Positions 43,974-64,000 are shown, counted from the first letter of the stretch. The stretch is DNA of 64,000 nucleotides from an uncultured Gammaproteobacteria bacterium (GCA_963797085.1 CAWCOA010000025.1:80065-144064), one strand, 5' to 3'. Numbers and translations: made by a program. Notes: generated from the sequence alone by a model not told the origin.

Positions 43974-46030
43974 TCAGCCCGCCAGCAGCGCCTTGGCCCG
44001 TGCGCAGACATGGTCGACGGTAAATCCGTATTCGCGCAGCAATTCCGTGGCCGGTGCAGAAGCACCGAAGCGTTCCACACCGAGCATCTCGCCCCGCGCA
44101 CCGAGGTAACGCTCCCAACCCTGAGCCACCCCCAGTTCGACCGCGAGCCGGGCGTCGACCGAGGGCGGCAGCACCGCATCGCGCTCGGCCTGTGGCAAGG
44201 CATCGAACAACTCCCAGCTCGGCATGGAGACGCAACGCACCGCGATGCCCTGCTGTTGCAGACGCTCAGCCGCCGCCAGGATCAGGCTGACCTCGGAACC
44301 GCTGGCGAGCAGGATCAGTTCAGGCTTGCCGTTCGGCGCATCGCTCAACACATAGGCGCCGCGGCGCAAGCCGTCCGCCGCAGCATAGCGGTTGCGATCG
44401 AGGGTGGGGAGAGCCTGCCGGCTCAAGACCAGCAGCACCGGACGGTCGCGGGTTTCCAGCGCGACGCGCCAGGCGATCGCGGTTTCGTTGGCATCACTCG
44501 GGCGGATCACAACCAGGTTGGGAATCGCCCGCAGGCTCGCCAGTTGCTCCACCGGTTGATGGGTCGGGCCGTCTTCGCCGACGGCGATACTGTCGTGGGT
44601 AAACACATGCACAACATGCAGCCCCATCAATGCCGCCAGCCGCAGCGACGGACGCAGATAGTCGGAGAAGATCAGAAAGGTGGCGCCATAGGGAATGAAG
44701 CCGCCGTGCGCGGCGAGACCGTTGACGATGGCGCCCATCGCATGTTCGCGCACACCGAAATGCAGGTTACGTCCGGCATAGCTCCAGCCGGCGCTGTCAG
44801 AGCCTTGCTGGTCGGTGTTTAGCGACGGCGGCGGATTGAAATCGCCCAGGCCCAGCATGGCGGTTTTGGTCGACGGGATCGAGGTCGGCCGAACCGCCGC
44901 TCAGCGCCGGCAGCCTAGGTGCGATGGCGTTGAGCACCTTGCCGGAGGCCTCGCGCGTCGCCAGACCCTTGTCATCAGCGTCGAATACTGGGATATCCGC
45001 ATCCCAGCCCGACGGCAGTTCGCCGCGCAGGCGACCCTGCAGCTCTTCGGCCAGCTCCGGAAAGCTTCTGGCGTAGGCGCTCAGCGACTCGTCCCACGCG
45101 GCCTCGGCCTGGGCTCCGCGTGTTACCGCTGAACGGAAATGCGCCAGCGCCGTCTCCGGAATCAGAAACGCCGGCTCGCTCGGCCAGCCTAGTGTCTGCT
45201 TGGTCTTGCGCACGTTATCCGGGCCGAGGGGGGAGCCATGCGCCTTGAAGCTGTCCTGTTCCGGCGAGCCATAGCCGATATGGGTACGCACCAGAATCAG
45301 CGACGGCCGCGCGGTTTGCGCGCGAGCGGCGGCCAGCGCGGCGTCGAGTGCGGCGAGGTCGTTGCCGTCCGCCACCGACAGGGTGTGCCAGCCATAGGCC
45401 TCGAAGCGTTGGGCGCGATGCTCGGAGAAGGTGATATCGGTGCCGGCGGCCAGGGTCACGGCGTTGTCGTCGTAGAGGCAGATGAGCTTCCCGAGCTGGA
45501 GATGACCGGCCAACGAGGCCGCCTCGGCGGCCACGCCTTCCATCAGGTCACCATCGCCGACCATGACATAGGTATGGTGATCGATCAGCGGGAGATCGGG
45601 ACGATTGTAACGGGCCGCCAGTTGCGCCTCCGCGATCGCCATGCCGACCGCGTTGCCCAGAGCCCTGCCCCAGGGGCCCGGTGGTGGTTTCCACCCCGGG
45701 GGTGTGGCCGCGCTCGGGATGCCCCGGGGTCTTGCTGCCCCATTGGCGGAACTGTCGGAGGTCGTCCAGCGAGAGGTCGTAACCGGTCAGGTGGAGCAGA
45801 CTGTAGAGCAGCGCCGAGCCGTGTCCGGCCGAGAGCACGAAGCGGTCGCGGTTGAACCAATGGGGGTTGCGCGGGTTGTACTTGAGCCAACGCGTCCACA
45901 GCACATAGGCCATCGGCGCGGCACCAAGGGGCAGGCCCGGATGGCCGCTGTTGGCCTGCTGCACCATATCCACTGACAGGAAGCGCAGGGTGTTGATGCA
46001 CTGCTGATCGAGTTGTGTTGTGTTTGTCAT
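43974..46030 (-). pseudogene. tkt: transketolase with two +1 insertions
   Basis: [38 protein letters not shown] | [38 protein letters not shown] | [42 protein letters not shown]. The extra bases are near 45661 and 44875. Confidence 0.92.
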
Positions 46031-46132: not shown

Positions 46133-47158
46133 TCAGCGTCCCTGTTTCTTCTCGTTATGTCCACCAAATTGCTTTCTCATCGCTGACAGGAGCCGATTGG
46201 CGTAGTCAGCGTCGCCGCGCGAAGCAAAGCGCTCCAACAGCGCCGCACTGATCACCGGCGCAGGCACCCCCTCATCGATGGCGGCCATCACTGTCCAGCG
46301 CCCCTCACCCGAATCAGACACACGACCCGAGAATCCGGCAAGACCAGCATCCTCAGCCAGCGCCTCGGCAGTCAGATCGAGCAGCCAAGACGACACTACA
46401 CTGCCACGTCGCCAGACTTCCGCGATCTCGGGTAGATCCAGATCATACTGATAATACTCTGGATCACGCATCGGTGTGGTCTCGGCATCGCTCTCCTGTG
46501 CGAGCTTGCCGACGTTGGCATTGCGCAGGATATTAAAACCCTCGGCATAAGCCGCCATCAGTCCGTACTCGATACCGTTGTGGACCATCTTGACGAAATG
46601 CCCGGCACCTGCCGGACCGCAGTGCAAGTAGCCCTGGTCGGCGCTGGCGTCGGGCTTATCCCGTCCGGGGGTGCGCGGCACCGTACCCACGCCGGGGGCA
46701 AGCGTGGCAAACACCGGATCAAGCTGTTGGACGACAGCCCTATCACCGCCGATCATCAGGCAGTAACCCCGTTCCAACCCCGCAATCCCACCGCTGGTGC
46801 CTACATCCACATAATGCACTCCATGCTGGCGTGCTTCAGCCGCGCGCCGGATATCATCGCGGTAATAGGAGTTACCGCCATCAATGATGATGTCGCCCGC
46901 TTCAAGAACGTGTAACAGTTGCGTCATCACCTCATCCACAACCGTCGCAGGCAGCATCAGCCAGACCGCGCGAGGCTTGGTCAACCGTTCGATGAAATCC
47001 TCAAGTGAGTCGGCGCCGACGGCGCCTTGGCTGAGGAGTGCCTTGACGGCATCAGCATGTCGATCGTACACCACACACTTGTGCCCTTTCCGCATCAAGC
47101 GTTGCACCATATTGCTGCCCATGCGTCCCAGTCCTATCATGCCGATCTGCATCTTCAA
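46133..47158 (-). CDS. gnd: 6-phosphogluconate dehydrogenase, decarboxylating (short, about 340-aa type)
   Basis: MQIGMIGLGRMGSNMVQRL, IIDGGNSYY, CGPAGAGHFVKMVHNGIEYG and FGGH near the C-terminus. Intact. Confidence 0.85.
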   Translation of the reverse strand: MKMQIGMIGLGRMGSNMVQRLMRKGHKCVVYDRHADAVKALLSQGAVGADSLEDFIERLTKPRAVWLMLPATVVDEVMTQLLHVLEAGDIIIDGGNSYYRDDIRRAAEARQHGVHYVDVGTSGGIAGLERGYCLMIGGDRAVVQQLDPVFATLAPGVGTVPRTPGRDKPDASADQGYLHCGPAGAGHFVKMVHNGIEYGLMAAYAEGFNILRNANVGKLAQESDAETTPMRDPEYYQYDLDLPEIAEVWRRGSVVSSWLLDLTAEALAEDAGLAGFSGRVSDSGEGRWTVMAAIDEGVPAPVISAALLERFASRGDADYANRLLSAMRKQFGGHNEKKQGR

Positions 47159-50047: not shown

Positions 50048-50855
50048 GATTCTGTCGCAATCAGCACCGATCCTGCTTCGACGGTACTATGAAAGCCACT
50101 TTATCAAACGACTCAGTCACAACATGATCAGTTTCAAAGGACGACACTTTCAACAGGAGATGATACTCCAGAGTATTCGTTGGTACCTGGCGTATTCTCT
50201 GAGCTATCGTGATATTTAAGAGATCATGATGGAGCGCGGCTTTAACGTTGATCACAGGACGATTCAACGCTGGGTTTTTCATTATTCACCGGAACTCGAG
50301 AAGGCTTTCCACAAGAAAAAGAAACGACCCGGTGACCGATGGCGACTCGATGAGACTTACATCAAGGTTAAGGGACAATGGAAGTACTTCTACCGCGCCG
50401 TGGATAAGCAGGGAAACACCATCGACTTCTTACTCACGGCCAAGCGTGATAAGAAGGCCGCATTGCGATTTCTGACCAAAGCGATTGAACGGAACGGAAA
50501 ACCGGGCCTCATCAATATCGATAAGAGCGGTGCGAACACGGCGCCGATCAAAGCCTACAATGATGACCACAATAAGCGTATCAAGATCCGGCAATGCAAA
50601 TACCTCAGCAACATCATTGAACAGGATCATCGGAGCATCAAACGCCAATGTCGTCCGATGTTGGGATTCAAGAGTTTTAATTCCGCACAGATCACACTGG
50701 CCGGGATTGAGTTGATCAACATGCTCAAGAAAGGGCTAATGCGGGTTACACGTGGACACCGTCTATCGCCTGTAGAAAAGTTCTATGGTTTGGCTGCTTA
50801 ACTGGCACGAGTGGCCGTGATAAATTTGGGTCCTTGCGGAGTTTGCGACAGAACC
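50048..50855 (+). mobile_element. IS6-family insertion sequence (about 808 bp)
   Basis: Terminal repeats GATTCTGTCGCAA (50048-50060) and TTGCGACAGAACC (50843-50855), 12/13 complementary and similar to IS26-type ends. There is a single transposase gene. The 8-bp flanks differ, so there is no target duplication. Confidence 0.8.
50124..50801 (+). pseudogene. IS6-family transposase with one in-frame nonsense codon
   Basis: MISFKGRHFQQEMILQSIRWYLAYSLSYRDI is followed by TAA (50217-50219) and then EIMMERGFNVDHRTIQRWV..WRLDETYIKVKGQW.YFYRAVDK... The sequence is collinear with IS26/IS240-type Tnp. The stop sits where relatives have Glu (RDIEE). Confidence 0.85.
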
Positions 50856-51121: not shown

Positions 51122-52154
51122 ATGCAGAAGAAAAAAATCATCATTGCGATCGTGCTGCTGGTGCTGGTGGTCAGCATGGCCCTGTTCTGGTGGCGAGATG
51201 CCCATGAGAAGCCTAATGGTGCGACACTGCAACTCTACGGCAATGTGGATATTCGTGAGGCGCAGTTGGCCTTCAACAACAGCGAACATATCGCAGAAAT
51301 CCAGGTGCAGGAAGGGGACCGCGTCACCAAGGGGCAGCTGCTGGCCCGCCTGCACACCGAGTTACTCGAAGCACAACTTGCCGAAGCGGAAGCGACGCTG
51401 CTCGCCCAGCAACAGATTCTAGCCAAACTGGTAGCGGGCAGCCGCCCGGAGGAGATCCGCAGAGGGAAGGCTGAACTGGAGGCCGCCCGCGCCAAGGCAA
51501 AGTCGACCCGTGACAGCTACAAACGCATGGCGCGGCTGCTGGAGAAAAAGCTGGCCTCGGCCGAAGACGTGGAGAATGCGCAATCGCTGGCCGACACTGC
51601 CAAGGCACAGATGGAGGTGGCGAAACAGGCGCTGGCATTGTTGCAGGCCGGCCCCCGCAAAGAAGACATCGCCGAGGCCCGTGCCCAGCTCGCCGCGCGC
51701 GAGGCGGGGCTGGTACTGGCCCGGCAGCGGTTGAAAAATGCCAATCTCTATGCGCCAGCGGATGGCATTATTCGCAATCGCATTCATGGAACCCGGTGAC
51801 ATGGTCTCCCCGCAGACACCGGTGCTGACCCTGGCCTTCATCGATCCGGTTTGGGTGCGGGCCTATCTGCCAGAACCCGCGCTGGGGCAGGTGGCGCTGG
51901 GCGCAAAGGCGTTCATCCACACCGACAGCTATCCGGACAAGGCCTACGAGGGCTGGGTCGGCTACATCTCTCCCAGCGCCGAATTCACGCCAAAGAGTGT
52001 GCAGACCCCGGAGCTGCGCACCCGGTTGGTCTACTCCGTGAGAATTTATGCCTGCAACCCGCAGGGGGAGTTGCGTCTGGGGATGCCGGTCACCGTCACC
52101 ATTGCACTCGATCAGACGCTGCCGGAGTCCACCGCCAACCACTGCGGACCCTAG
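51122..52154 (+). pseudogene. HlyD-family adaptor, cluster 2 (YbhG-like), one frameshift
   Basis: MQKKKIIIAIVLLVLVV..coiled coil..[13 protein letters not shown] changes frame at about 51785 (an extra c in cgcattCatgg) into [41 protein letters not shown]. Confidence 0.85.
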
Positions 52155-52155
52155 C

Positions 52156-53906
52156 GTGGACACCACCGCTGCTCACATTTTCGGCTGTCAGCAAGACCTT
52201 CCAAGCTGGCGGAGGGCAGGCGCAGGCGCTGGAAGGGGTAGGTTTCAGTATCCAGCCCGGCCGGGTGACGGGGCTGATCGGCCCGGATGGGGCGGGTAAG
52301 ACCACCTTGATGCGTCTCGCCGCCGGTTTGCTGTTGCCGGATGCGGGCGAGATCCGGGTGCTGGATATCGACGCCCTCGCCGAACCGTTGGCGGTGCAGT
52401 CCAGCGTTGGCTATATGCCACAGCGTTTTGGTCTCTATGAAGATCTCAGCGTGCAGGAAAATCTTGATCTCTACGCCGATCTGCAAGGCATGCCCATGGC
52501 GCAGCGGCCGGCCCGTTATGCGGAACTGATGCGGATGACCGGCCTGGGTCCGTTTACCCGACGGTTGGCAGGGCGTCTTTCTGGTGGCATGAAACAGAAG
52601 TTGGGCCTGGCCTGCACCCTGGTGCGTTCACCACGACTGTTGTTGTTGGATGAACCCACTGTCGGGGTCGACCCGGTTTCACGCCGTGAGCTTGTGGCAG
52701 ATCGTCTATCGTCAGGTACAGGAGGCGGGCATGAGTGTGCTGCTCAGCACCGCCTATCTGGATGAGGCGGAACGCTGTGACGAGGTGATGCTGGTTCACC
52801 AGGGCAAACTGCTGGGTCAGGGTGAACCGGCAGAGTTCAGTCGCGCAGTGGCGGGGCGGACATTTCTGGTGAGCGCCAAGGGGATGAGTCATCGCCGCTT
52901 GCAGGAACAACTGAACCGTGCCCCCGGCGTGCTGGATGCTCTGATAGAAGGTGAGGCGGTGCGCCTGGTCATGGAAACGCCTCAGGCGCCCACACCCGAA
53001 CTACTGCTGCCGGGGCAGGCCGATGTTCATATCGCGCCGGTGGCGCCGCGTTTCGAAGACGCCTTTGTCGCGCGCCTGAAAACCCGTCGGCCTGAGCCCG
53101 AGGCAGCGCTTTCACTGCAGCTGAAAATAAACGCGGCTGAGGGCGACGAGGTGATCCGGGTAGACAAGCTGCAACGACGTTTCGGTGATTTCATCGCGGT
53201 GAACAATGTCAGCTTCAGCGTGCGCCGGGGTGAGATCTTCGGTCTGCTGGGGGCCAATGGCGCCGGCAAATCCACCACCTTTCGTATGCTCTGCGGGCTG
53301 TTGCCTGCCAGCGGCGGCGAGCTGGCGGTAGCCGGACATGATCTGCGCCGCGCCGCCGCTTCCGCACGCGGGCGCATTGGCTACATGGCGCAGAAGTTTT
53401 CGCTCTACACCAATCTGTCGGTGACCCAGAACCTGCGTTTTTTCTCCAGCGCCTATGGCCTGCGCGGAAAATACCAAACTGAACGTCTCGACTGGGCGTT
53501 GACCACCTTCGAACTGGCTTCGTTTCGGGATGCCAATGCCGGTGATTTACCCTTGGGCTACAAACAGCGCCTGTCCTTTGCCGCGGCACTGATGCACCAG
53601 CCGGAGATCCTGTTTCTCGACGAGCCCACCTCCGGCGTCGATCCCCTGGCACGGCGGGAATTCTGGGCGCGTACCAATGCCCTGGCCGAGGCCGGGGTTA
53701 CGGTGCTGGTCACCACCCATTTCATGGAGGAAGCCAATTACTGTGACCGGCTGGTGATCATGGCTGACGGCGAAGTACTGGCCGAAGGCACACCGTTGGC
53801 AATGAAGACCCGTGCGCGCACAGTGGACAACCCCGACCCGACCATGGAGGATGCCTTCATTCAGCTGATCGAACAGCGCCAGGAAAAATCGGGGGCCGCA
53901 GCATGA
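52156..53906 (+). pseudogene. duplicated-ATPase ABC protein (YbhF-like), one or two frameshifts
   Basis: The first half has [43 protein letters not shown], then a frame change near 52694 into WQIVYRQVQEAGMSVLLSTAYLDEAERCD. The second half has GLLGANGAGKSTT..LFLDEPTSGVDP. The GTG at 52156 is out of frame with ..PPLLTFSAVSKTF, which implies a further indel at about 52160-52170. Confidence 0.85.
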
Positions 53907-55029
53907 CCCCGTTGGCCCGTATGCGTTTGTGGGGCATGATCCGCAAGGAGAGCCTGCAGATCCTGCGTGATCCATCGAGCATCTCCATCGCCTTCGTGAT
54001 GCCGGTGGTGTTGCTGTTTCTGTTCGGCTACGGTGTCTCGCTGGATGCGAAACATATTCCGGTGGGCATCGTCATCGAACAGCCGGACACCGCGACCCAG
54101 TCACTTGCGGGTTCCTTTGAACGCTCCGAGTTTTTTCGTCCGCTGCACTTCGATGCCATTCAAGCGGCGCAGCAGGCGCTGGATGAACGAAAGATCGACG
54201 GTATCATCTGGCTGCGCAACAATTTTTCCGCCAGGCTGTTGTCCGGTCACGAGGCACCCATCGGCGTCATCATCAATGGCGTGGACTCCAATCAGGCCAA
54301 TATCACCCAGGGGTATATTCAGGGCGCCTGGCAGGCGTGGCTCGGCCTTTATGCCGAGAGTCGTGGCCAGCCGCTGCCCATGCCGGTGAGTCTGGAACAA
54401 CGGGTGTGGTTCAATGCCGCGCTTGTCCAGCCGTCTGTTTCTGGTGCCGGGGTTGATCGCCATCATTATGACCCTGATTGGTTCACTGCTCACCGCCATG
54501 GTGGTGGCGCGCGAATGGGAGCGCGGCACCATGGAGGCGCTGATGGTGACGCCACTACACAGGGGCGAGATACTGGCGGGCAAGCTGGTTCCTTATTTTG
54601 TGCTGGGCATGGGTGGCATGTTATTCAGTGTGGCCCTGGCAGTGTGGCAGTTTGAGGTGCCGCTGCGCGGTTCCTTCTGGTTGCTGATGCTCAGCTCGGC
54701 GCTGTTCATGTCTGGTGGCGCTGGCTATCGGGTTGTTGATTTCCATCGTCTCGAAAAATCAGTTTGTGGCGGGGCAGTTGGCCATCATCGTTACCTTTTT
54801 ACCTGCCTTTATCCTGTCCGGGTTTCTGTTTGATATTCATTCCATGCCCGCCTGGATACAGCTCATCACCCATTTGGTGCCGGCACGCTATTTCGTGGCC
54901 ATCCTGCAAACCCTGTTTCTCGCGGGTGATGTCTGGCCGGTGGTGCTGGCCAACATGAGCGCGCTGTTGATAATGTTGTTGCTCTTTTTCACCCTGGTGT
55001 GGCGCAAGTTCCACAAGCGGCTGGAGTAG
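53903..55029 (+). pseudogene. ABC-2 permease (YbhS-like), two frameshifts
   Basis: MTPLARMRLWGMIRKESLQILRD..RVWFNAAL | SSRLFLVPGLIAIIMTLIGSLLTAMVVAREWERGTMEAL..SSALFM | VALAIGLLISIVSKNQFVAGQ..WRKFHKRLE. The indels are near 54423 and 54708. Confidence 0.85.
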
Positions 55030-56238: not shown

Positions 56239-56418
56239 TATTGGGGAACACTAGCATTCCATCCGTTTTTTGACGGTACGATCTCCTATCATACTGATAT
56301 TACAAGAGAAATAATCTTCGGCCTGACCAAAAATTAGACAGTTGAAAAAATTCTATAGAATCAAATGGTTAAGCTAGAAATCGCCGAGTTTTGTACGAAA
56401 TGCTAGTGTTCCCCAATA
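56239..56418. mobile_element. MITE-like element: 176-bp core with 18-bp perfect terminal inverted repeats, flanked by TA/TA
   Basis: TA-TTGGGGAACACTAGCATT (56239-56258) is the exact reverse complement of AATGCTAGTGTTCCCCAA-TA (56399-18). There is no ORF inside. The element interrupts the parE reading frame. A TA duplication is the IS630/Tc1-mariner signature. Confidence 0.6.
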
Positions 56419-56533: not shown

Positions 56534-56767
56534 TTACTGCCTGGCTTCTTCCCTAATGGCGGCCATATCGAGCGGCCCAGCATCTCCGCTTTCTTCACCT
56601 TCAATTAAGGCTTGGCGCAGGGCATGGACCTTTTGTTCATGTTCTTCGAGCAGGCGCAAAGAAGCCCTAATCACTTCACTGGCCGAACCATAGCGGCCCT
56701 GCCTCACTTGGTCCGCAATAAAGCCTTCAAAATGCTCGCCTAACGTAATACTGGTGTGTTTGGACAT
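56534..56767 (-). CDS. parD: ParD-family (CC2985-type) antitoxin, intact
   Basis: [44 protein letters not shown] is a ribbon-helix-helix antitoxin of the ParD/ParE type. AAGGAG RBS. Confidence 0.85.
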
Positions 56768-56815: not shown

Positions 56816-56905
56816 TTATGGCAAGAAAAAACAAGGATTGTCGAAGTTGTGGTATTTCTGAAAACTGAACAGATGTCTAAGGAACTGTTCACTTTTACAG
56901 GAACC

Positions 56906-56977
56906 CCGGCCAAGATTCATGTTTATGCCGAGCTCGGCATAAACACGATAATCCCGAGTTCCGGATTATGTCGAGTA
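56906..56977. repeat. RIT left terminal inverted repeat
   Basis: CCGGCCAAGATTCATGTTTATGCCGAGCTCGGCATAAACACGATAATCCCGAGTTCCGGATTATGTCGAGTA is the reverse complement of 60356-60427 except for one base (56910). It contains the 22-bp perfect palindrome TTTATGCCGAGCTCGGCATAAA (56922-56943). Confidence 0.9.
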
Positions 56978-57098
56978 GGCGGTTTTTATCCGCCTAATCA
57001 TAGAGAATTCCTACGTTTTCCGTTTAAACTGCTCGACATAACCCAACGATAGGGCTTTTCTTCTTCTGTGGCCATTTAGGCCCAGGAAGGAGAAAATC

Positions 57099-58349
57099 AT
57101 GATCGATTCCATCTTTGTTCGGGCATCAGTGCTCGCGCGATTACACCAAAACCCTCTTGTAGCTCATCTAGAGTGTCTCGCTACCACCTTGCACCAGCAA
57201 GGCTACGCACGGCGTAGTATTCAGGACTGTGTACTTGCCGGCGAAAAGTTTGGCTGCTGGCTACATCGGCAAGGCTGCGTATGCACTGCGATCGATGAAG
57301 CGCTTTTGGGGCGCTATGTCGCTGGACTGAAACGTTACCGTTCCGGTAAGCGTTGCAAAGGCGCAGCGGGCTTGAACCATCTATTCAGAATACTGCGCCA
57401 ACAAGGGGTCGTGGTCGAACGGCAAGCAGCGACGCTTATAGCGCCCGTTGATCAATGGCTCGCTCGATACGAGCAATACCTGGAGCAAGTCGTGGGTGCC
57501 GTCGTTAGCACCCGTCAGCGCTATCGTCCGATTGTTCGACAGTTCATTAGAAAATGCTGTATCTCGGGAGAAGTCAATTGGCCCTCATTGAGCGCGCAGA
57601 CAATCACTGAGTTTGTTTGCAAGCAAGCAGCCGCCCGGCAGGGTCATGGACGTAAGCTGCCGAGCGTGGCGGTGCGCTCGTTTTTGCGCTTTCTGGTCTT
57701 TCAAGGTGAGATCAACACCGGCTTAGAGGCCGCGGCACCCCCACCACCACAGTGGACGCACGCGGCGCTGCCGGTCCGCCTGACACCCGAGCAGGTTGAG
57801 CGTGTGGTGGCCGTTTACAAAGAGAAAACAGCCAGCAGTCTGCGCAACCGCGCCATACTCTTGTTACTGGCGCGCCTTGGCCTACGCGCCGGGGAGGTTC
57901 TCACACTGGGCTTGGACGACATCGATTGGTACCAGGGTCGGCTTATTATCCGCCCTGGTAAGACCCACCAGGCACGCACGTTGCCATTACCCCAGGACGT
58001 GGGCAACGCCCTGGTCGCATACCTTGAAGACGGTCGGCCCACAGGCAGTACCAGTCGACAGATCTTCTTGCAGTGCCATCCGCCGTTTCAACCGTTAGCC
58101 ACCAGCAACGCCGTCGTGAAGGTCGTACGACGGGCGTTGCAGCGGGCGGGTGTGGCCAAACAACCCCGCGTCGTGAGTCATATTTTTCGCCACACGGCCG
58201 CCTCTCAGATGCTCAATCAAGGTGCCAGCTTCAAAGAGGTGGCCGACATCTTAGGGCACCGTTCACTACAAACCACAGGCATCTACGCGAAACTGGATTT
58301 GAAGGCGTTGGTTTCGGTAGCACTGCCGTGGTTGGGAGGTGCCCAATGA
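57099..58349 (+). CDS. tyrosine recombinase RitA-type (416 aa)
   Basis: The catalytic set lies in LGLRAGEVLTL (Arg), HIFRHTAAS (H-x-x-R) and GHRSLQTTGIYAKL (His, Tyr). A long N-terminal SAM-like domain is present. Confidence 0.88.
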   Translation: MIDSIFVRASVLARLHQNPLVAHLECLATTLHQQGYARRSIQDCVLAGEKFGCWLHRQGCVCTAIDEALLGRYVAGLKRYRSGKRCKGAAGLNHLFRILRQQGVVVERQAATLIAPVDQWLARYEQYLEQVVGAVVSTRQRYRPIVRQFIRKCCISGEVNWPSLSAQTITEFVCKQAAARQGHGRKLPSVAVRSFLRFLVFQGEINTGLEAAAPPPPQWTHAALPVRLTPEQVERVVAVYKEKTASSLRNRAILLLLARLGLRAGEVLTLGLDDIDWYQGRLIIRPGKTHQARTLPLPQDVGNALVAYLEDGRPTGSTSRQIFLQCHPPFQPLATSNAVVKVVRRALQRAGVAKQPRVVSHIFRHTAASQMLNQGASFKEVADILGHRSLQTTGIYAKLDLKALVSVALPWLGGAQ

Positions 58350-59311
58350 ACATCAATACCGATTTTCTAGATACCCAGTTAACGGCGTATCTGAGCCTGC
58401 GCGAAGCCCTCGGTTTTCAGCTGTGCGCCGAGAAGTTTCTTTTGCCAGAATTTGTCGCCTTTGTTCAAACACAGAACATAACCGGCCCGATTCGCGCCCA
58501 CCTGGCCTTGGATTGGGCCTGTTCCGCCTCCACTCAGCGAGGCGCTAGCGGTGCGGCCAGGCGCTTGAGCATCGCACGCAGGTTTCTGACTTTCGTCCAG
58601 GCCTCAGCGCCGGATACCGAGGTGCCACCCCAAAATCTGTTGCCCAGCGCCAGGCGAACGAAACCGTACATTTTTACACCGACTCAGCTGACGCTGTTAT
58701 TCGAAGCGGCCCGAGCGAGTCGGCCCCAGGCGTCGCTACGCCCCGCCATGTTATCGACCTTGATTGGTCTGTTGGCGAGTACGGGTCTGCGCGTCGGCGA
58801 AGCTATCCGGCTACAGCTGGCAGACGTGAAGTTAGACTTCGATCCCGCTCAACTTTACATCCTGGAGACAAAGTTCCACAAATCACGGATCGTACCGTTA
58901 CATCCCAGCACGGTGGAGCCACTGCGCCATTACGCCGAACAGCGTGCACGCTTAGGCTACGATGGCCTATCGGATTCTTTCTTCTTATCAGAACAGGGAC
59001 GAGCATTGAGTTATCCCGTCCTGCATCGCTGGTTTACCCGGCTGTGTCGGCGACTGGCCATTCAACCTACGGATGACAGTCGGGGTCCTTGCCTGACGTC
59101 GTTTCGGCATACCTTTGCCGTGACCTGTATGCGCCGCTGGTATCAGCAGGGGCTGGATGTGCAAGTCTGGTTACCACACCTGTCGGTCTACCTGGGTCAC
59201 GTACGACCACAAGACAGTTACTGGTACTTAACCGCCGTGCCCGAACTGCTGAACGCCGCAGCGGAGCGGTTCCGCACTTATGCGACCACGGGAGGTGATC
59301 ATGATAAATAG
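58346..59311 (+). CDS. tyrosine recombinase RitB-type (321 aa)
   Basis: ATGA overlap with the ritA stop, with GGGAGG upstream. Motifs are TGLRVGEAIRL, SFRHTFAV and LGHVRPQDSYWYL. Confidence 0.88.
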   Translation: MNINTDFLDTQLTAYLSLREALGFQLCAEKFLLPEFVAFVQTQNITGPIRAHLALDWACSASTQRGASGAARRLSIARRFLTFVQASAPDTEVPPQNLLPSARRTKPYIFTPTQLTLLFEAARASRPQASLRPAMLSTLIGLLASTGLRVGEAIRLQLADVKLDFDPAQLYILETKFHKSRIVPLHPSTVEPLRHYAEQRARLGYDGLSDSFFLSEQGRALSYPVLHRWFTRLCRRLAIQPTDDSRGPCLTSFRHTFAVTCMRRWYQQGLDVQVWLPHLSVYLGHVRPQDSYWYLTAVPELLNAAAERFRTYATTGGDHDK

Positions 59312-60302
59312 CGGCTTGATTGCACCTTATCTGCAAGCGTTCTTCGCCGACTACTTGTGCCAGCAAAAACGCATGAGTCCTCAAACGATTATCAGCTATC
59401 GTGATACCTTCCGGTTATTGTTGACGTTTGTTAAAAATACAACAGGCATCGAGCCCTGCGCATTGCGGGTGGTCGACTTGGATGCACCCGCCGTACTCAG
59501 CTTTCTAGATCACCTTGAGCAGCAGCGCGGCAACTCGGTTAGCTCACGCAACGTCCGGTTGTCCGCTATCAGATCGTTCTTCCGTTTGATTGCCTTGCGC
59601 GATCCCGACAGCGTTGGCCTTGCCACGCGCGTGCTCGCAATCCCCGTCAAGCGGGAAGACAAAAAGCTGATCGGGTATCTGACACGAACAGAGATTCAAG
59701 CGCTGCTCGCCGCGCCAGACCGTTCGCAGTGGGCAGGCCAGCGTGATCACGCATTGTTTCTAACGCTGTACAATAGCGGTGCTCGGGTCTCCGAAATCAT
59801 CGCCCTGAAGCGCGATCACATCTGTTTTGGCGCTACCAGCTTCTTGCAGCTGACGGGCAAGGGCCGAAAAGAACGTACGATACCGCTATGGAGCGAAACC
59901 AGTAAGGTCCTGAAAGCCTGGTTTCGTAAGCTCGATAATAACGCAGATAGCATCGTTTTCCCCAATGCCAGGGGCAAACACCTGTCGCGCGACGGTGTTG
60001 ATTACCTGTTAAAACGGTCTGTCCGCAAAGCAACCATCGACTGCCCCGGCCTTGCGACCAAGACGATAACTCCTCACATCGTTCGCCACGCGACTGCCAT
60101 GCATTTGCTACAGGCTGGCGTGGATATCGCAACGATCGCGCTCTGGCTCGGTCATGAAAGTATCGAGACCACTCACGTTTATCTCGAAGCTGATCTCGCC
60201 CTCAAAGAAAAGGCACTGGCAAAACTTGACCCTGTAGAGGATGGGCGCATGTTGCGGTTTAAGGCAGATGACCCACTGCTGGCGTTTCTCGCTTCGCTCT
60301 GA
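59301..60302 (+). CDS. tyrosine recombinase RitC-type (333 aa)
   Basis: ATG 59301 follows GGGAGG and overlaps the ritB end by 11 nt. Motifs are SGARVSEIIAL, HIVRHATAMHLL and GHESIETTHVYLEAD. Confidence 0.88.
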   Translation: MINSGLIAPYLQAFFADYLCQQKRMSPQTIISYRDTFRLLLTFVKNTTGIEPCALRVVDLDAPAVLSFLDHLEQQRGNSVSSRNVRLSAIRSFFRLIALRDPDSVGLATRVLAIPVKREDKKLIGYLTRTEIQALLAAPDRSQWAGQRDHALFLTLYNSGARVSEIIALKRDHICFGATSFLQLTGKGRKERTIPLWSETSKVLKAWFRKLDNNADSIVFPNARGKHLSRDGVDYLLKRSVRKATIDCPGLATKTITPHIVRHATAMHLLQAGVDIATIALWLGHESIETTHVYLEADLALKEKALAKLDPVEDGRMLRFKADDPLLAFLASL

Positions 60303-60355
60303 TTATGCCGAGTAAGATCTCATGAAATCGCTACCTCGTATACGCTCACCTACGT

Positions 60356-60427
60356 TACTCGACATAATCCGGAACTCGGGATTATCGTGTTTATGCCGAG
60401 CTCGGCATAAACATGAATCTTGTCCGG
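60356..60427. repeat. RIT right terminal inverted repeat
   Basis: Reverse complement of 56906-56977; contains the same 22-bp palindrome at 60390-60411. Confidence 0.9.
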
Positions 60428-60508
60428 AGGCCGTACACACGCAATGATTTCTTGACGTTCAATACTATTGTGTCGCGACAACAAGAACAGAACGAGACTG
60501 TATTAGCC

Positions 60509-63104: not shown

Positions 63105-64000
63105 TCAGTCATTTTCCCGCTGATCCGTCCTCGCCACCGCCTCATGCAGGGCCCCGTCCTCATGGGACACATACAGCATCGTGGTGTTGATGTCCTTATG
63201 CCGGGCAAATCGCTGGGTCAGTCTGACATCGGCATGGCGTCCCACATTGGTAATGGCGGTATGGCGGGTGAGATGGGGCACCGCCTGGGCCAACTTGGCG
63301 GCCCGGGCTGGGTTCGACGCTTTCAGCTGTTCTGACGCCGCTTTAAACACGGCCTTCACCAACTCATAGATCCGATAGGGCTTAATGGGCCGCTTGCCTT
63401 TGATGCTCGCCACCAGCGGAAAGGCCTCATCCTGGGGATCGCCCCGCATCGGATAGGGCGCCAGCCCGAGGTGCAGGCGATAGCGTTTGAGGTCCTCGAG
63501 CAGTTGACGGGGTGACCGGCACCCAGTCCTGCCGCCCGCCTTTACCTTTGATATGAGCCGCCAGACGACCCGCCCGTCCGGCAGTTCGTGTTCCCGCAAA
63601 CTGCCCATGGTATGACTGGCCACCTCAAACAACCGCATCCCGGTAACCAGCAACAGCCGTAACAACCAGCGCTTGCGCTCATAGTCATCGATCTGGCGCG
63701 GCGTCTTTCGCGGCAGGTCTTCGATGGCCTGCCAGAGCGCCGCCTGTTCCTCGGCAAAAAAGGCCTCGCGATGGTGGCTGATCTGTGGCCGTCGAAATGC
63801 CTTCGATCAGGGGATTCACCGAGAGATAGCCCCGCTCAGTCAGGAAACTCAGCAAGGCGTTGATCACCACCAGGCTCTGATGCACACTCGACTCCGAGCG
63901 GGCCGAGGTAAAAGGTCGCCATTGGCCTGAGCGACGACTGTATTTATGATTCGCCGGCATGCACCAGCTCGCCGGCGGATCCAGCAGGAACTGCTGATAG
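63105..64000 (-). pseudogene. phage-type tyrosine integrase, 5'-partial at window edge, three indels
   Basis: ..YQQFLLDPPASWCMPANHKY..WRPFTSARSESSVHQSLVVINALLSFLTERGYLSVNPL changes frame at about 63800-63812 into ..AFFAEEQAALWQAIEDL..LLLVTGMRLFEV (Arg)..HLTRHTAITNV..ARHKDINTTMLYV. A -1/+1 indel pair (about 63553 and 63508) garbles IKGKGGRQDWVPVTP. Confidence 0.8.

Follow-up and report, generated by a model that had tools for sequence, protein, structure and literature searches.

How does an element that carries three tyrosine recombinases, and that shows no target duplication, enter its sites? The question is raised by a recombinase-in-trio (RIT) element in a window of 64,000 nucleotides (nt) from an uncultured Gammaproteobacteria bacterium (GCA_963797085.1 CAWCOA010000025.1:80065-144064); the window denotes that whole stretch, and positions are counted from its first letter. 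The RIT class, with its three protein families, its length of ~3,500 bp, its inverted repeats, and its nested copies on the pHG1 and EbN1 plasmids, has been published (PMC3414803). As of 2023, no RIT transposition had been reproduced in the laboratory, and target specificity and movement were listed as untested (PMC10214605); in the literature searched we found nothing on RIT mechanism later than that paper. The best explanation overall, to which we assign a probability of about 0.6, is that the window holds a complete RIT element and that such elements enter DNA by conservative site-specific integration around an invariant palindrome, here called P.

The element is complete at window positions 56901-60432, a unit of 3,532 bp, and encodes three recombinases:

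57099-58349, plus strand: ritA, 416 amino acid (aa) tyrosine recombinase with two tandem core-binding-like domains
58346-59311, plus strand: ritB, 321 aa tyrosine recombinase (from an internal ATG)
59301-60302, plus strand: ritC, 333 aa XerD-like tyrosine recombinase

An earlier note on this DNA had described three overlapping tyrosine-recombinase genes of these lengths, with an ATGA and an 11-nt overlap and GGGAGG before both downstream starts. The description holds: the open reading frames (ORFs) are present, all three proteins contain PF00589 (the Pfam Phage_integrase domain), ritA and ritB share ATGA (4 nt, 58346-58349), ritB and ritC share 11 nt (59301-59311), and GGGAGG lies 5-6 nt upstream of the ritB start and of the ritC start. 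The three genes are translationally coupled. The same note had raised the possibility that the three are not RitA/B/C orthologues, which comparison with the pHG1 and NGR234 trios speaks against. RitA, RitB, and RitC scored 255, 181, and 320 bits, respectively, with their positional counterparts on pHG1, and any other pairing scored at most 86 bits (BLASTP); the NGR234 trio gave the same positional pattern, and each window protein and its RitA, RitB, or RitC counterpart on pHG1 and in NGR234 were reciprocal best matches. By these comparisons the proteins are orthologues of RitA, RitB, and RitC, in that gene order.

All three Rit proteins were nearest to XerC/XerD among NCBIfam models (RitA 138, RitB 72, and RitC 183 bits), far below the equivalog cut-offs of 330-335 bits; the GmtY (gamma-mobile-trio) model, which we take to be tied to GInts or SEs, gave about 18 bits (RitA 17.8, RitC 18.0) against a cut-off of 340. 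RITs are widespread; a search with RitA reached E <= 1e-10 for 3,526 of the 8,000 candidates scored. Two sequential core-binding domains in RitA and an extra conserved C-terminal helix in RitC are hallmarks of RITs (PMC8138268). In the window RitA, the profile of residues 18-109 aligns with that of residues 115-209 at 94% probability (E = 9e-8; hhalign, a sequence-level comparison), and RitC extends ~38 aa beyond the catalytic Tyr, ending in ..D.LL.FL..L, a motif kept in nine of nine aligned lineages.

The comparison set for the archetype comprised C. metallidurans CH34 Rmet_1271-1273 and the copies on the EbN1 plasmids and on pHG1, a plasmid especially rich in RITs (PMC3414803). The window element is like these in its three co-oriented overlapping recombinase genes in the order long RitA, RitB, RitC, its length of ~3.5 kb, its terminal inverted repeats, its region rich in mobile elements, and the occurrence of several identical copies in related genomes. 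It differs in the length of its inverted repeats (72-77 nt versus 34-36 nt), in the presence at each end of an additional 24-nt palindrome and an outer arm of 16 nt, in a RitB that has Thr for the first His of HxxR, and in a ritB-ritC overlap of 11 nt versus 4-8 nt (PMC3414803). A 72-nt repeat on a 3,532-bp unit is RIT-like; other plasmid RITs have repeats of 36, 60, and 101 nt. Because gene order, sizes, overlaps, inverted repeats, and total length fit published RITs, the unit is a complete RIT element with near certainty, and is a new intact representative of an already known class.

The features that bear on movement lie at the element's ends:

56901-56916, plus strand: left outer arm, GAACCCCGGCCAAGAT; its tip lies 32 nt from the palindrome centre, as in solo palindromes
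56917-56922, plus strand: left outer spacer, TCATGT; proposed strand-exchange (overlap) region
56921-56944, no strand: left P, GTTTATGCCGAGCTCGGCATAAAC; repeats a (56923-56932) and b (56933-56942)
56943-56948, plus strand: left inner spacer, ACACGA
56949-56975, plus strand: direct accessory repeats c (TAATCCCGAG, 56949-56958) and d (TTATGTCGAG, 56966-56975)
57032-57041, minus strand: repeat e, a further motif copy in inverted orientation, lying 56 nt inside the inverted repeat
60303-60312, plus strand: repeat e', TTATGCCGAG, beginning directly after the ritC stop codon
60358-60384, minus strand: right repeats d' (CTCGACATAA, 60358-60367) and c' (CTCGGGATTA, 60375-60384)
60385-60416, no strand: right-hand spacers and P, with TCGTGT at 60385-60390, P at 60389-60412, and ACATGA at 60411-60416
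60417-60432, minus strand: right outer arm, ATCTTGTCCGGAGGCC, the tip of which marks the right boundary

Read inward, each end thus begins with an outer arm of 16 nt; a 6-nt spacer lies between this arm and the 24-nt palindrome P, another 6-nt spacer lies between P and the direct repeats c and d, and an inverted repeat e follows. P is formed by two abutting inverted copies of the motif TTATGYCGAG, which occurs 10 times in the window versus 0.23 expected, eight of the copies lying inside the two ends; matches of TTATGCCGAG at 46541 and 54349 were set aside as chance, as they fall in ordinary coding sequence with no neighbouring repeats. Repeat b, the inner spacer, and repeat c make up a dif-like 10-6-10 core (CTCGGCATAA-ACACGA-TAATCCCGAG). 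Repeats e and e' lie 45-56 nt further in than the direct repeats of their end. The position of e' is kept in the pHG1, NGR234, Marinobacter, EbN1, Rhodococcus, and Paraburkholderia RITs; the inner repeat sequence of the window element, TTACYCGACATAATCCGGAAC, is also found in the Paraburkholderia RIT (RitA 39% identical) and in Marinobacter RITs; and the e'/d' pair together with the inner repeat recurs in pHG1, NGR234, Marinobacter, Aromatoleum, and Paraburkholderia RITs (RitA 37-40% identical).

The earlier note had placed the element at 56906-60427, bounded by 72-nt inverted repeats with a single mismatch. The repeats are as described (56906-56977 and 60356-60427, one mismatch, 99% complementary), but the unit exceeds each of them by 5 nt, to 56901 and 60432, with degenerate tips. 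The right boundary was fixed by the comparison with RIT-free relatives that the note had proposed: in RIT-free contigs that carry the Uma2 neighbour, homology to the window begins at 60433 (L019, 95%) or 60435 (L020-L022, 88%), which puts the right end at 60432, at a distance of 32 nt from the right palindrome's centre. The left end would lie at 56901 by symmetry with the right end; look-ups of the exact RitA, ParD, second Uma2, ABC-2 permease, and AAA ATPase proteins recovered no relative with the window's left flank. No direct repeat was found at the element junctions, which agrees with the earlier statement that there is no target duplication.

The element belongs to a sub-lineage in which its nearest sequenced relatives, six copies spread over four loci, come from a Halioglobus sp. 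assembly (6.45 Mb, OZ253569.1); they have 86.5% DNA identity to the window and 99.9% identity to each other in the pairs compared. These copies have mostly unrelated flanks and the same outer arms; the left outer arm of the window is homologous to their arm GAGGTCTGGCCAAGAT. DNA homology between the two spans 56906-56908 to 60428, the outermost 5-6 bases of the window element being divergent forms of the Halioglobus tips (GAACCC and GGCCTC in the window versus GAGGTC in Halioglobus). The Halioglobus ends compared are otherwise near-identical, the sole difference next to P being A or G at the middle base of the spacer (TCGTGT or TCATGT). At ~3.15-3.16 Mb (L007 and L008), three RIT units stand head-to-tail with a period of 3,331 bp. 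The joints of this tandem array lie inside a 13-nt sequence, ACTCGACATAATC, common to the inner edge of the right repeat (d') and the internal repeat e near ritA, and the terminal palindrome is missing between units.

More distant relatives were sought with an exact 24-nt P search of metagenome contigs, which returned 87 stretches with 88 P occurrences: 49 with c and d on one side, 13 gene-free palindromes, 23 unclassified, and 3 near a contig end. P is identical at the ends of RITs whose proteins are 23-67% identical to those of the window, and across P-bearing lineages conservation is always highest in RitC. Among plasmids, P was represented by seven records, none with all 24 nt and five with exact matches to the central 20-21 nt; P is therefore not general to plasmid-borne RITs.

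Many complete elements carry P at one end only, and it is these that locate the junctions. In seven single-P elements, complete or mini (L031, L049, L059, L055, L096, L077, and L058), the P-less end stops at c', and the 6 nt that follow c' are identical to those that separate flank and P at the opposite end (TGGGGT in three, TGGCGT in two, TCGTGT and TTGCGT in one each). The left outer spacer of the window corresponds to these 6 nt. The internal spacer beyond P is the reverse complement of the junction 6-mer, exactly in five of the seven and with one mismatch in two. A target-site duplication was considered as the source of the shared 6 nt and rejected, as a mirrored copy sits inside the element; the 6-mer is therefore element-specified rather than an arbitrary duplication of the target.

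One RIT lineage occupies sequence-distinct IS21-family istA genes (L031, L035, L046, L049, L051, L054, L059, L092, and L107, the last placed in this set by 95% flank identity to L049). In the eight loci with the P-side flank read, the insertion lies at the codons of the conserved ..LPGEQxQxDW|G.. motif. When the L031 flanks are joined, the resulting protein matches the IS21 transposase model over residues 2-294 of 294, across the insertion, and the target segment can be written as follows:

L031-type IS21 istA target segment: GCGAC-TGGGGT-CATTTCGG

In each of the seven loci inspected, P is on the N-terminal side of istA; it adjoins ritA at two of them and ritC at five. These RITs appear to parasitise recombinase genes of other mobile elements. 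A mini-RIT of ~350 nt with both compound ends and P, and with no recombinase genes (L058 5637-5985; also L069 and L042, with a partner end in L032), is inserted at the catalytic box (HDLRK|TFGS) of a phage-type integrase gene, and ACGCAA stands at each junction.

P also occurs in gene-free 64-bp palindromes (outer arm-P-outer arm), the arms of which end ~32 nt from the centre in every lineage. In several of these solo palindromes the outer arms match particular RIT lineages (by eye), in three (L029, L105, and L048) the arms come from two different lineages, and in two (L095 and L068) A or G at the spacer middle base is the only or nearly only mismatch. They bear on the question, raised in the earlier note, of whether the inverted repeats belong to a larger repeat unrelated to the recombinases: the outer 32 nt do occur outside complete elements, but the gene-free palindromes are RIT-related, because they have the RIT-specific palindrome and lineage-specific arms in common with RITs. 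A second lineage (L076) has P and an outer arm at both ends, like the window and Halioglobus elements, and the truncated end of L078 stops at repeat e. A search for occupied and empty pairs among the 87 metagenome loci gave only identical duplicates and one pair that is not simple (L029/L060).

These observations can be assembled into a mechanism in which a RIT would be a conservative site-specific integrative element rather than a cut-and-paste transposon, a proposition that we put at roughly even odds. The recombination site would be built around P, with a dif-like 10-6-10 core made up of one half of P (TTATGCCGAG), a 6-bp overlap, and repeat c' (CTCGGGATTA), and with a mirror-image core in which the second half of P is joined to repeat c through the mirrored 6 bp. 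Excision as a circle would bring the two ends together as c'-6-P-6-c, the predicted attP, and strand exchange in the 6-bp overlap with a target bearing the same 6 bp would give insertion without target duplication. Because of the mirror symmetry, the trio of genes could enter either way round. Repeats d and e (d' and e') would serve as accessory binding sites, RitC probably binding the invariant P arms and RitA and RitB probably binding the lineage-specific repeats. The window copy would sit centrally in a 64-bp palindromic module that also exists alone.

A site-specific core with a mirror twin would explain why the target is not duplicated, why P keeps to one side, and why the trio occurs in two orientations. 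The fixed P side on istA with the trio in either direction is the pattern predicted for a mirror-symmetric site whose overlap is asymmetric, and A or G at the spacer middle base is expected if heteroduplex forms there.

Several points weigh against this mechanism. The assignment of each protein to a repeat we infer purely. In the window lineage the 16-nt outer arms travel with the element to mostly unrelated flanks; for exchange next to P to account for this, the 64-bp palindromes would have to be landing pads that were already present or that move separately, the other reading being that the whole unit moves by a second route. In Halioglobus the tandem array is joined at d' and e, not at P, so that a second kind of exchange or a microhomology-driven duplication must exist. 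The origin of the solo palindromes is left unexplained by the model: the window copy may be a RIT within a palindrome, or the palindromes may be remnants left after two P copies recombine. RITs were enriched in exonuclease-resistant DNA with circular junctions undetected (Nielsen et al., PMC5737581), and the circle junction c'-6-P-6-c was found in none of our sequences. Finally, part of the end anatomy may already be published (Ricker et al. 2013).

Known systems resemble the proposed one in part. A dif site has 10-nt arms around a 6-bp overlap, and the proposed RIT core would likewise have two 10-nt arms, ending in CATAA / TTATG-like sequence, around a 6-bp overlap. In NCBIfam and PDB, RitA and RitC match XerC, XerD, and XerA best. 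Unlike the Xer system, RITs have three paralogues rather than two, scores of 138 and 183 bits versus 335, element-borne genes, and multiple accessory repeats at each end. The internal resolution site of Tn4430 TnpI has an inverted-repeat core and two adjacent direct accessory repeats, a layout like P followed by c and d; that site, present once per element, serves to resolve cointegrates formed by a DDE transposon, whereas the present element is bounded by such a site on either side and has no DDE transposase. Tn554 is not known to have long inverted repeats or a palindromic core. It resembles RITs as a multi-recombinase transposon with site-selective insertion, no target duplication, and a 6-bp sequence at its junctions (PMC10214605), but it combines the TnpA and TnpB recombinases with the non-recombinase TnpC and belongs to other protein families, the TnpA subgroup (PMC8138268). 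Multi-tyrosine-recombinase gene modules also combine several recombinases and recombine attL x attR (PMC5385486, PMC10214605); unlike RITs, they have four conserved genes including non-canonical members, carry cargo, and are the size of genomic islands.

The alternative that survives best, although we hold it to be unlikely, is that the whole 3,532-bp unit, outer arms included, moves via its extreme tips, as do Tn554 and conjugative transposons, with P and the inner repeats being accessory or resolution sites. The tips would then be akin to short coupling sequences, with no target duplication, and the 64-bp solo palindromes would be scars of directly repeated P copies that recombined with deletion of the interior. 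The retention of outer arms amid mostly unrelated flanks in Halioglobus fits such movement, as does the right boundary with RIT-free relatives, which falls at the outer-arm tip and not at P; the tips are the most variable part of the ends, as coupling sequences would be, and the two P copies of the window form 32-nt direct repeats, 94% identical, that would be able to delete the interior. Tips so variable would, however, make poor recombinase-binding arms, and it is P that is invariant. Furthermore, the single-P relatives are complete without an outer arm at one end and lie in precise, reconstructible targets, and the two-lineage arms of L029, L105, and L048 point to exchange at P.

The earlier note had credited all three proteins with complete catalytic sets, which is correct for RitA and RitC (R..K..HxxR..H..Y by alignment) but not for RitB, which has R, K, R, H, and Y and in which Thr251 replaces the first His of HxxR (T-S-F-R-H in RitB versus H-V-L-R-H in XerD, the Thr being aligned with XerD His244). 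A His occupies this position in 24 of 24 other RitB proteins recovered and in seven of eight aligned plasmid and Halioglobus homologues, the Halioglobus copy having Met; the Thr is common to eight further sequence variants of the window sub-lineage. The RH and Y residues of the catalytic motif given for RIT recombinases, RH...Y (PMC3414803, Table 1), are present in RitA, RitB, and RitC. RitB may, from its sequence, be catalytically weakened in the window lineage, and the substitution is a lineage trait compatible with multiplication, because the Met-bearing sister lineage reached six near-identical copies.

The ratio of non-synonymous to synonymous substitution (dN/dS) between window and Halioglobus is 0.189, 0.177, and 0.177 for the three rit genes, and all three have therefore been under past purifying selection. 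The earlier note had read an intact element in a landscape of dead genes as a sign of recent activity or selection; past selection is upheld, but recent activity is not, since intactness amid pseudogenes is consistent with past selection and equally with recent arrival, given the contrast in GC content.

It is conceivable, if quite improbable, that the copy is immobile here, either as a recently acquired and undecayed passenger or as a trio kept for a host-side rearrangement function. The window holds a single RIT and no P site beyond its two ends (0.00 expected), the element has a GC content of 0.55-0.59 versus 0.45-0.47 in its immediate flanks (~10 points higher), RitB is without the catalytic-pocket His found in the other RitB lineages examined, and, compared with two relatives, the locus is rearranged, one breakpoint falling no more than 5 nt from the tip. 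Immobility sits poorly with a dN/dS of 0.18-0.19 in all three genes, with two complete compound ends whose repeats differ at 1 of 72 nt, and with a sister lineage, bearing Met at the RitB position, that multiplied to six near-identical copies.

The rearrangement is seen in two sets of RIT-free relatives, in which an integrase remnant meets the Uma2 flank with its 3' end, precisely at the position of the RIT end. In the window this remnant lies 2.7 kb off (63105-63665, minus strand) and is inverted relative to the relatives; the locus has therefore undergone a rearrangement, one breakpoint of which lies ~5 nt or less from the element tip. Rearrangement via two inverted RIT copies was considered and rejected, as the second breakpoint (63104|63105) is without RIT or P sequence.

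More speculative still, and in our view a long shot, is that the 64-bp palindromes are a separate, non-autonomous partner, short landing pads first spread and afterwards colonised by the Rit proteins, possibly via folded or hairpin DNA, by analogy with integron integrases that use folded attC sites. If so, double-P RITs would be autonomous elements nested in their own miniature partner, and three recombinases would share the tasks of moving the pad, integrating into the pad, and inverting the interior. The weakest alternative is a reaction like telomere resolution, in which both strands would be cut at the symmetric GAGCTC centre of P to give a hairpin-capped linear intermediate, fusion of donor hairpins leaving a solo palindrome: P is a perfect palindrome with a symmetric centre, solo sites are near-perfect at ~64 bp, and RITs were enriched in exonuclease-resistant DNA without circle junctions in a study that proposed hairpin intermediates (PMC5737581), but we judge it very improbable, as the single-P junctions place exchange in the 6 nt beside P and not at its centre, the Rit proteins resemble XerC, XerD, and XerA, and ordinary recombination of two P sites yields the same solo product.

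Expression of the trio may be controlled at its first gene, upstream of which lies one further feature:

57056-57096, plus strand: hairpin upstream of ritA, with the ritA Shine-Dalgarno sequence (GGAAGGAG) within its 3' arm

The folding energy of this hairpin is -22.5 kcal/mol (z = -3.1), and in the minimum free energy (MFE) folds of seven out of eight RIT lineages, whose sequences differ here, a hairpin holds the ritA ribosome-binding site in its 3' arm (equivalent positions occur in L001, L009-L013, and L016). A hairpin over the ribosome-binding site suggests translational control of ritA. Rfam and tRNA scans of the element region gave no matches, and a promoter and terminator scan stayed at chance level, with only weak outward-facing promoter-like matches inside the inverted repeats. 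As a separate observation, the RitA alignment begins only at residue 107-124 in L076, L096, L106, L108, and L060, and in L076 only ~200 nt lie between P and the start of the RitA alignment; a RitA variant without the first core-binding-like domain may exist.

The surroundings of the element are degraded, as the earlier note had reported: the transketolase is split, ABC genes carry frameshifts, the IS6 transposase is short, and an integrase survives as a remnant. The broken genes lie as follows:

43974-45642: transketolase, split into at least two ORFs
50226-50801: IS6-family transposase, 191 aa only
51851-54833: double ABC ATPase and ABC-2 permease, each broken into overlapping ORFs

The insertion site between a parDE remnant and a Uma2 gene was also correctly described: parD is intact (56534-56767), parE is broken by a small insertion, and Uma2 lies on the opposite side. 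At the parE frame break, 56239-56418, perfect 20-nt inverted repeats (TATTGGGGAACACTAGCATT and its complement) stand 140 nt apart, and the segment looks like a miniature insertion that inactivated the toxin gene.

Two further observations concern the Halioglobus loci. In L003 (9290-9300) and L004 (5840-5850) the terminal palindrome is cut by an identical foreign end, GGAACTTTTTAC, and ISL3-family transposase genes adjoin the L004 RIT copy; some insertion sequence may target the RIT palindrome. A 1.56-kb segment with small HTH-type genes is 99.8% identical between two distant loci (L001 9341-10902 and L008 909-2472), and abuts the right RIT end at one locus and the left RIT end at the other, a pattern that may stem from inversion of the RIT interior, segmental duplication, or co-mobilisation.

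Taken by itself, the window copy is ordinary and adds little; the added value lies in the comparative anatomy of the ends. Its unusually rich ends led to the relatives, which reveal both junctions of precise insertions, a gene-less mini-RIT, gene-free palindromes, and a tandem array. Their comparison yields a predicted crossover in the 6 bp beside the palindrome, a predicted attP of the form c'-6-P-6-c, and defined targets in IS21 transposase and integrase genes. The loss of the His in RitB of a still-multiplying lineage bears on the need for three recombinases, and the proposed conservative site-specific integration around P would offer an explanation for the missing target duplication.

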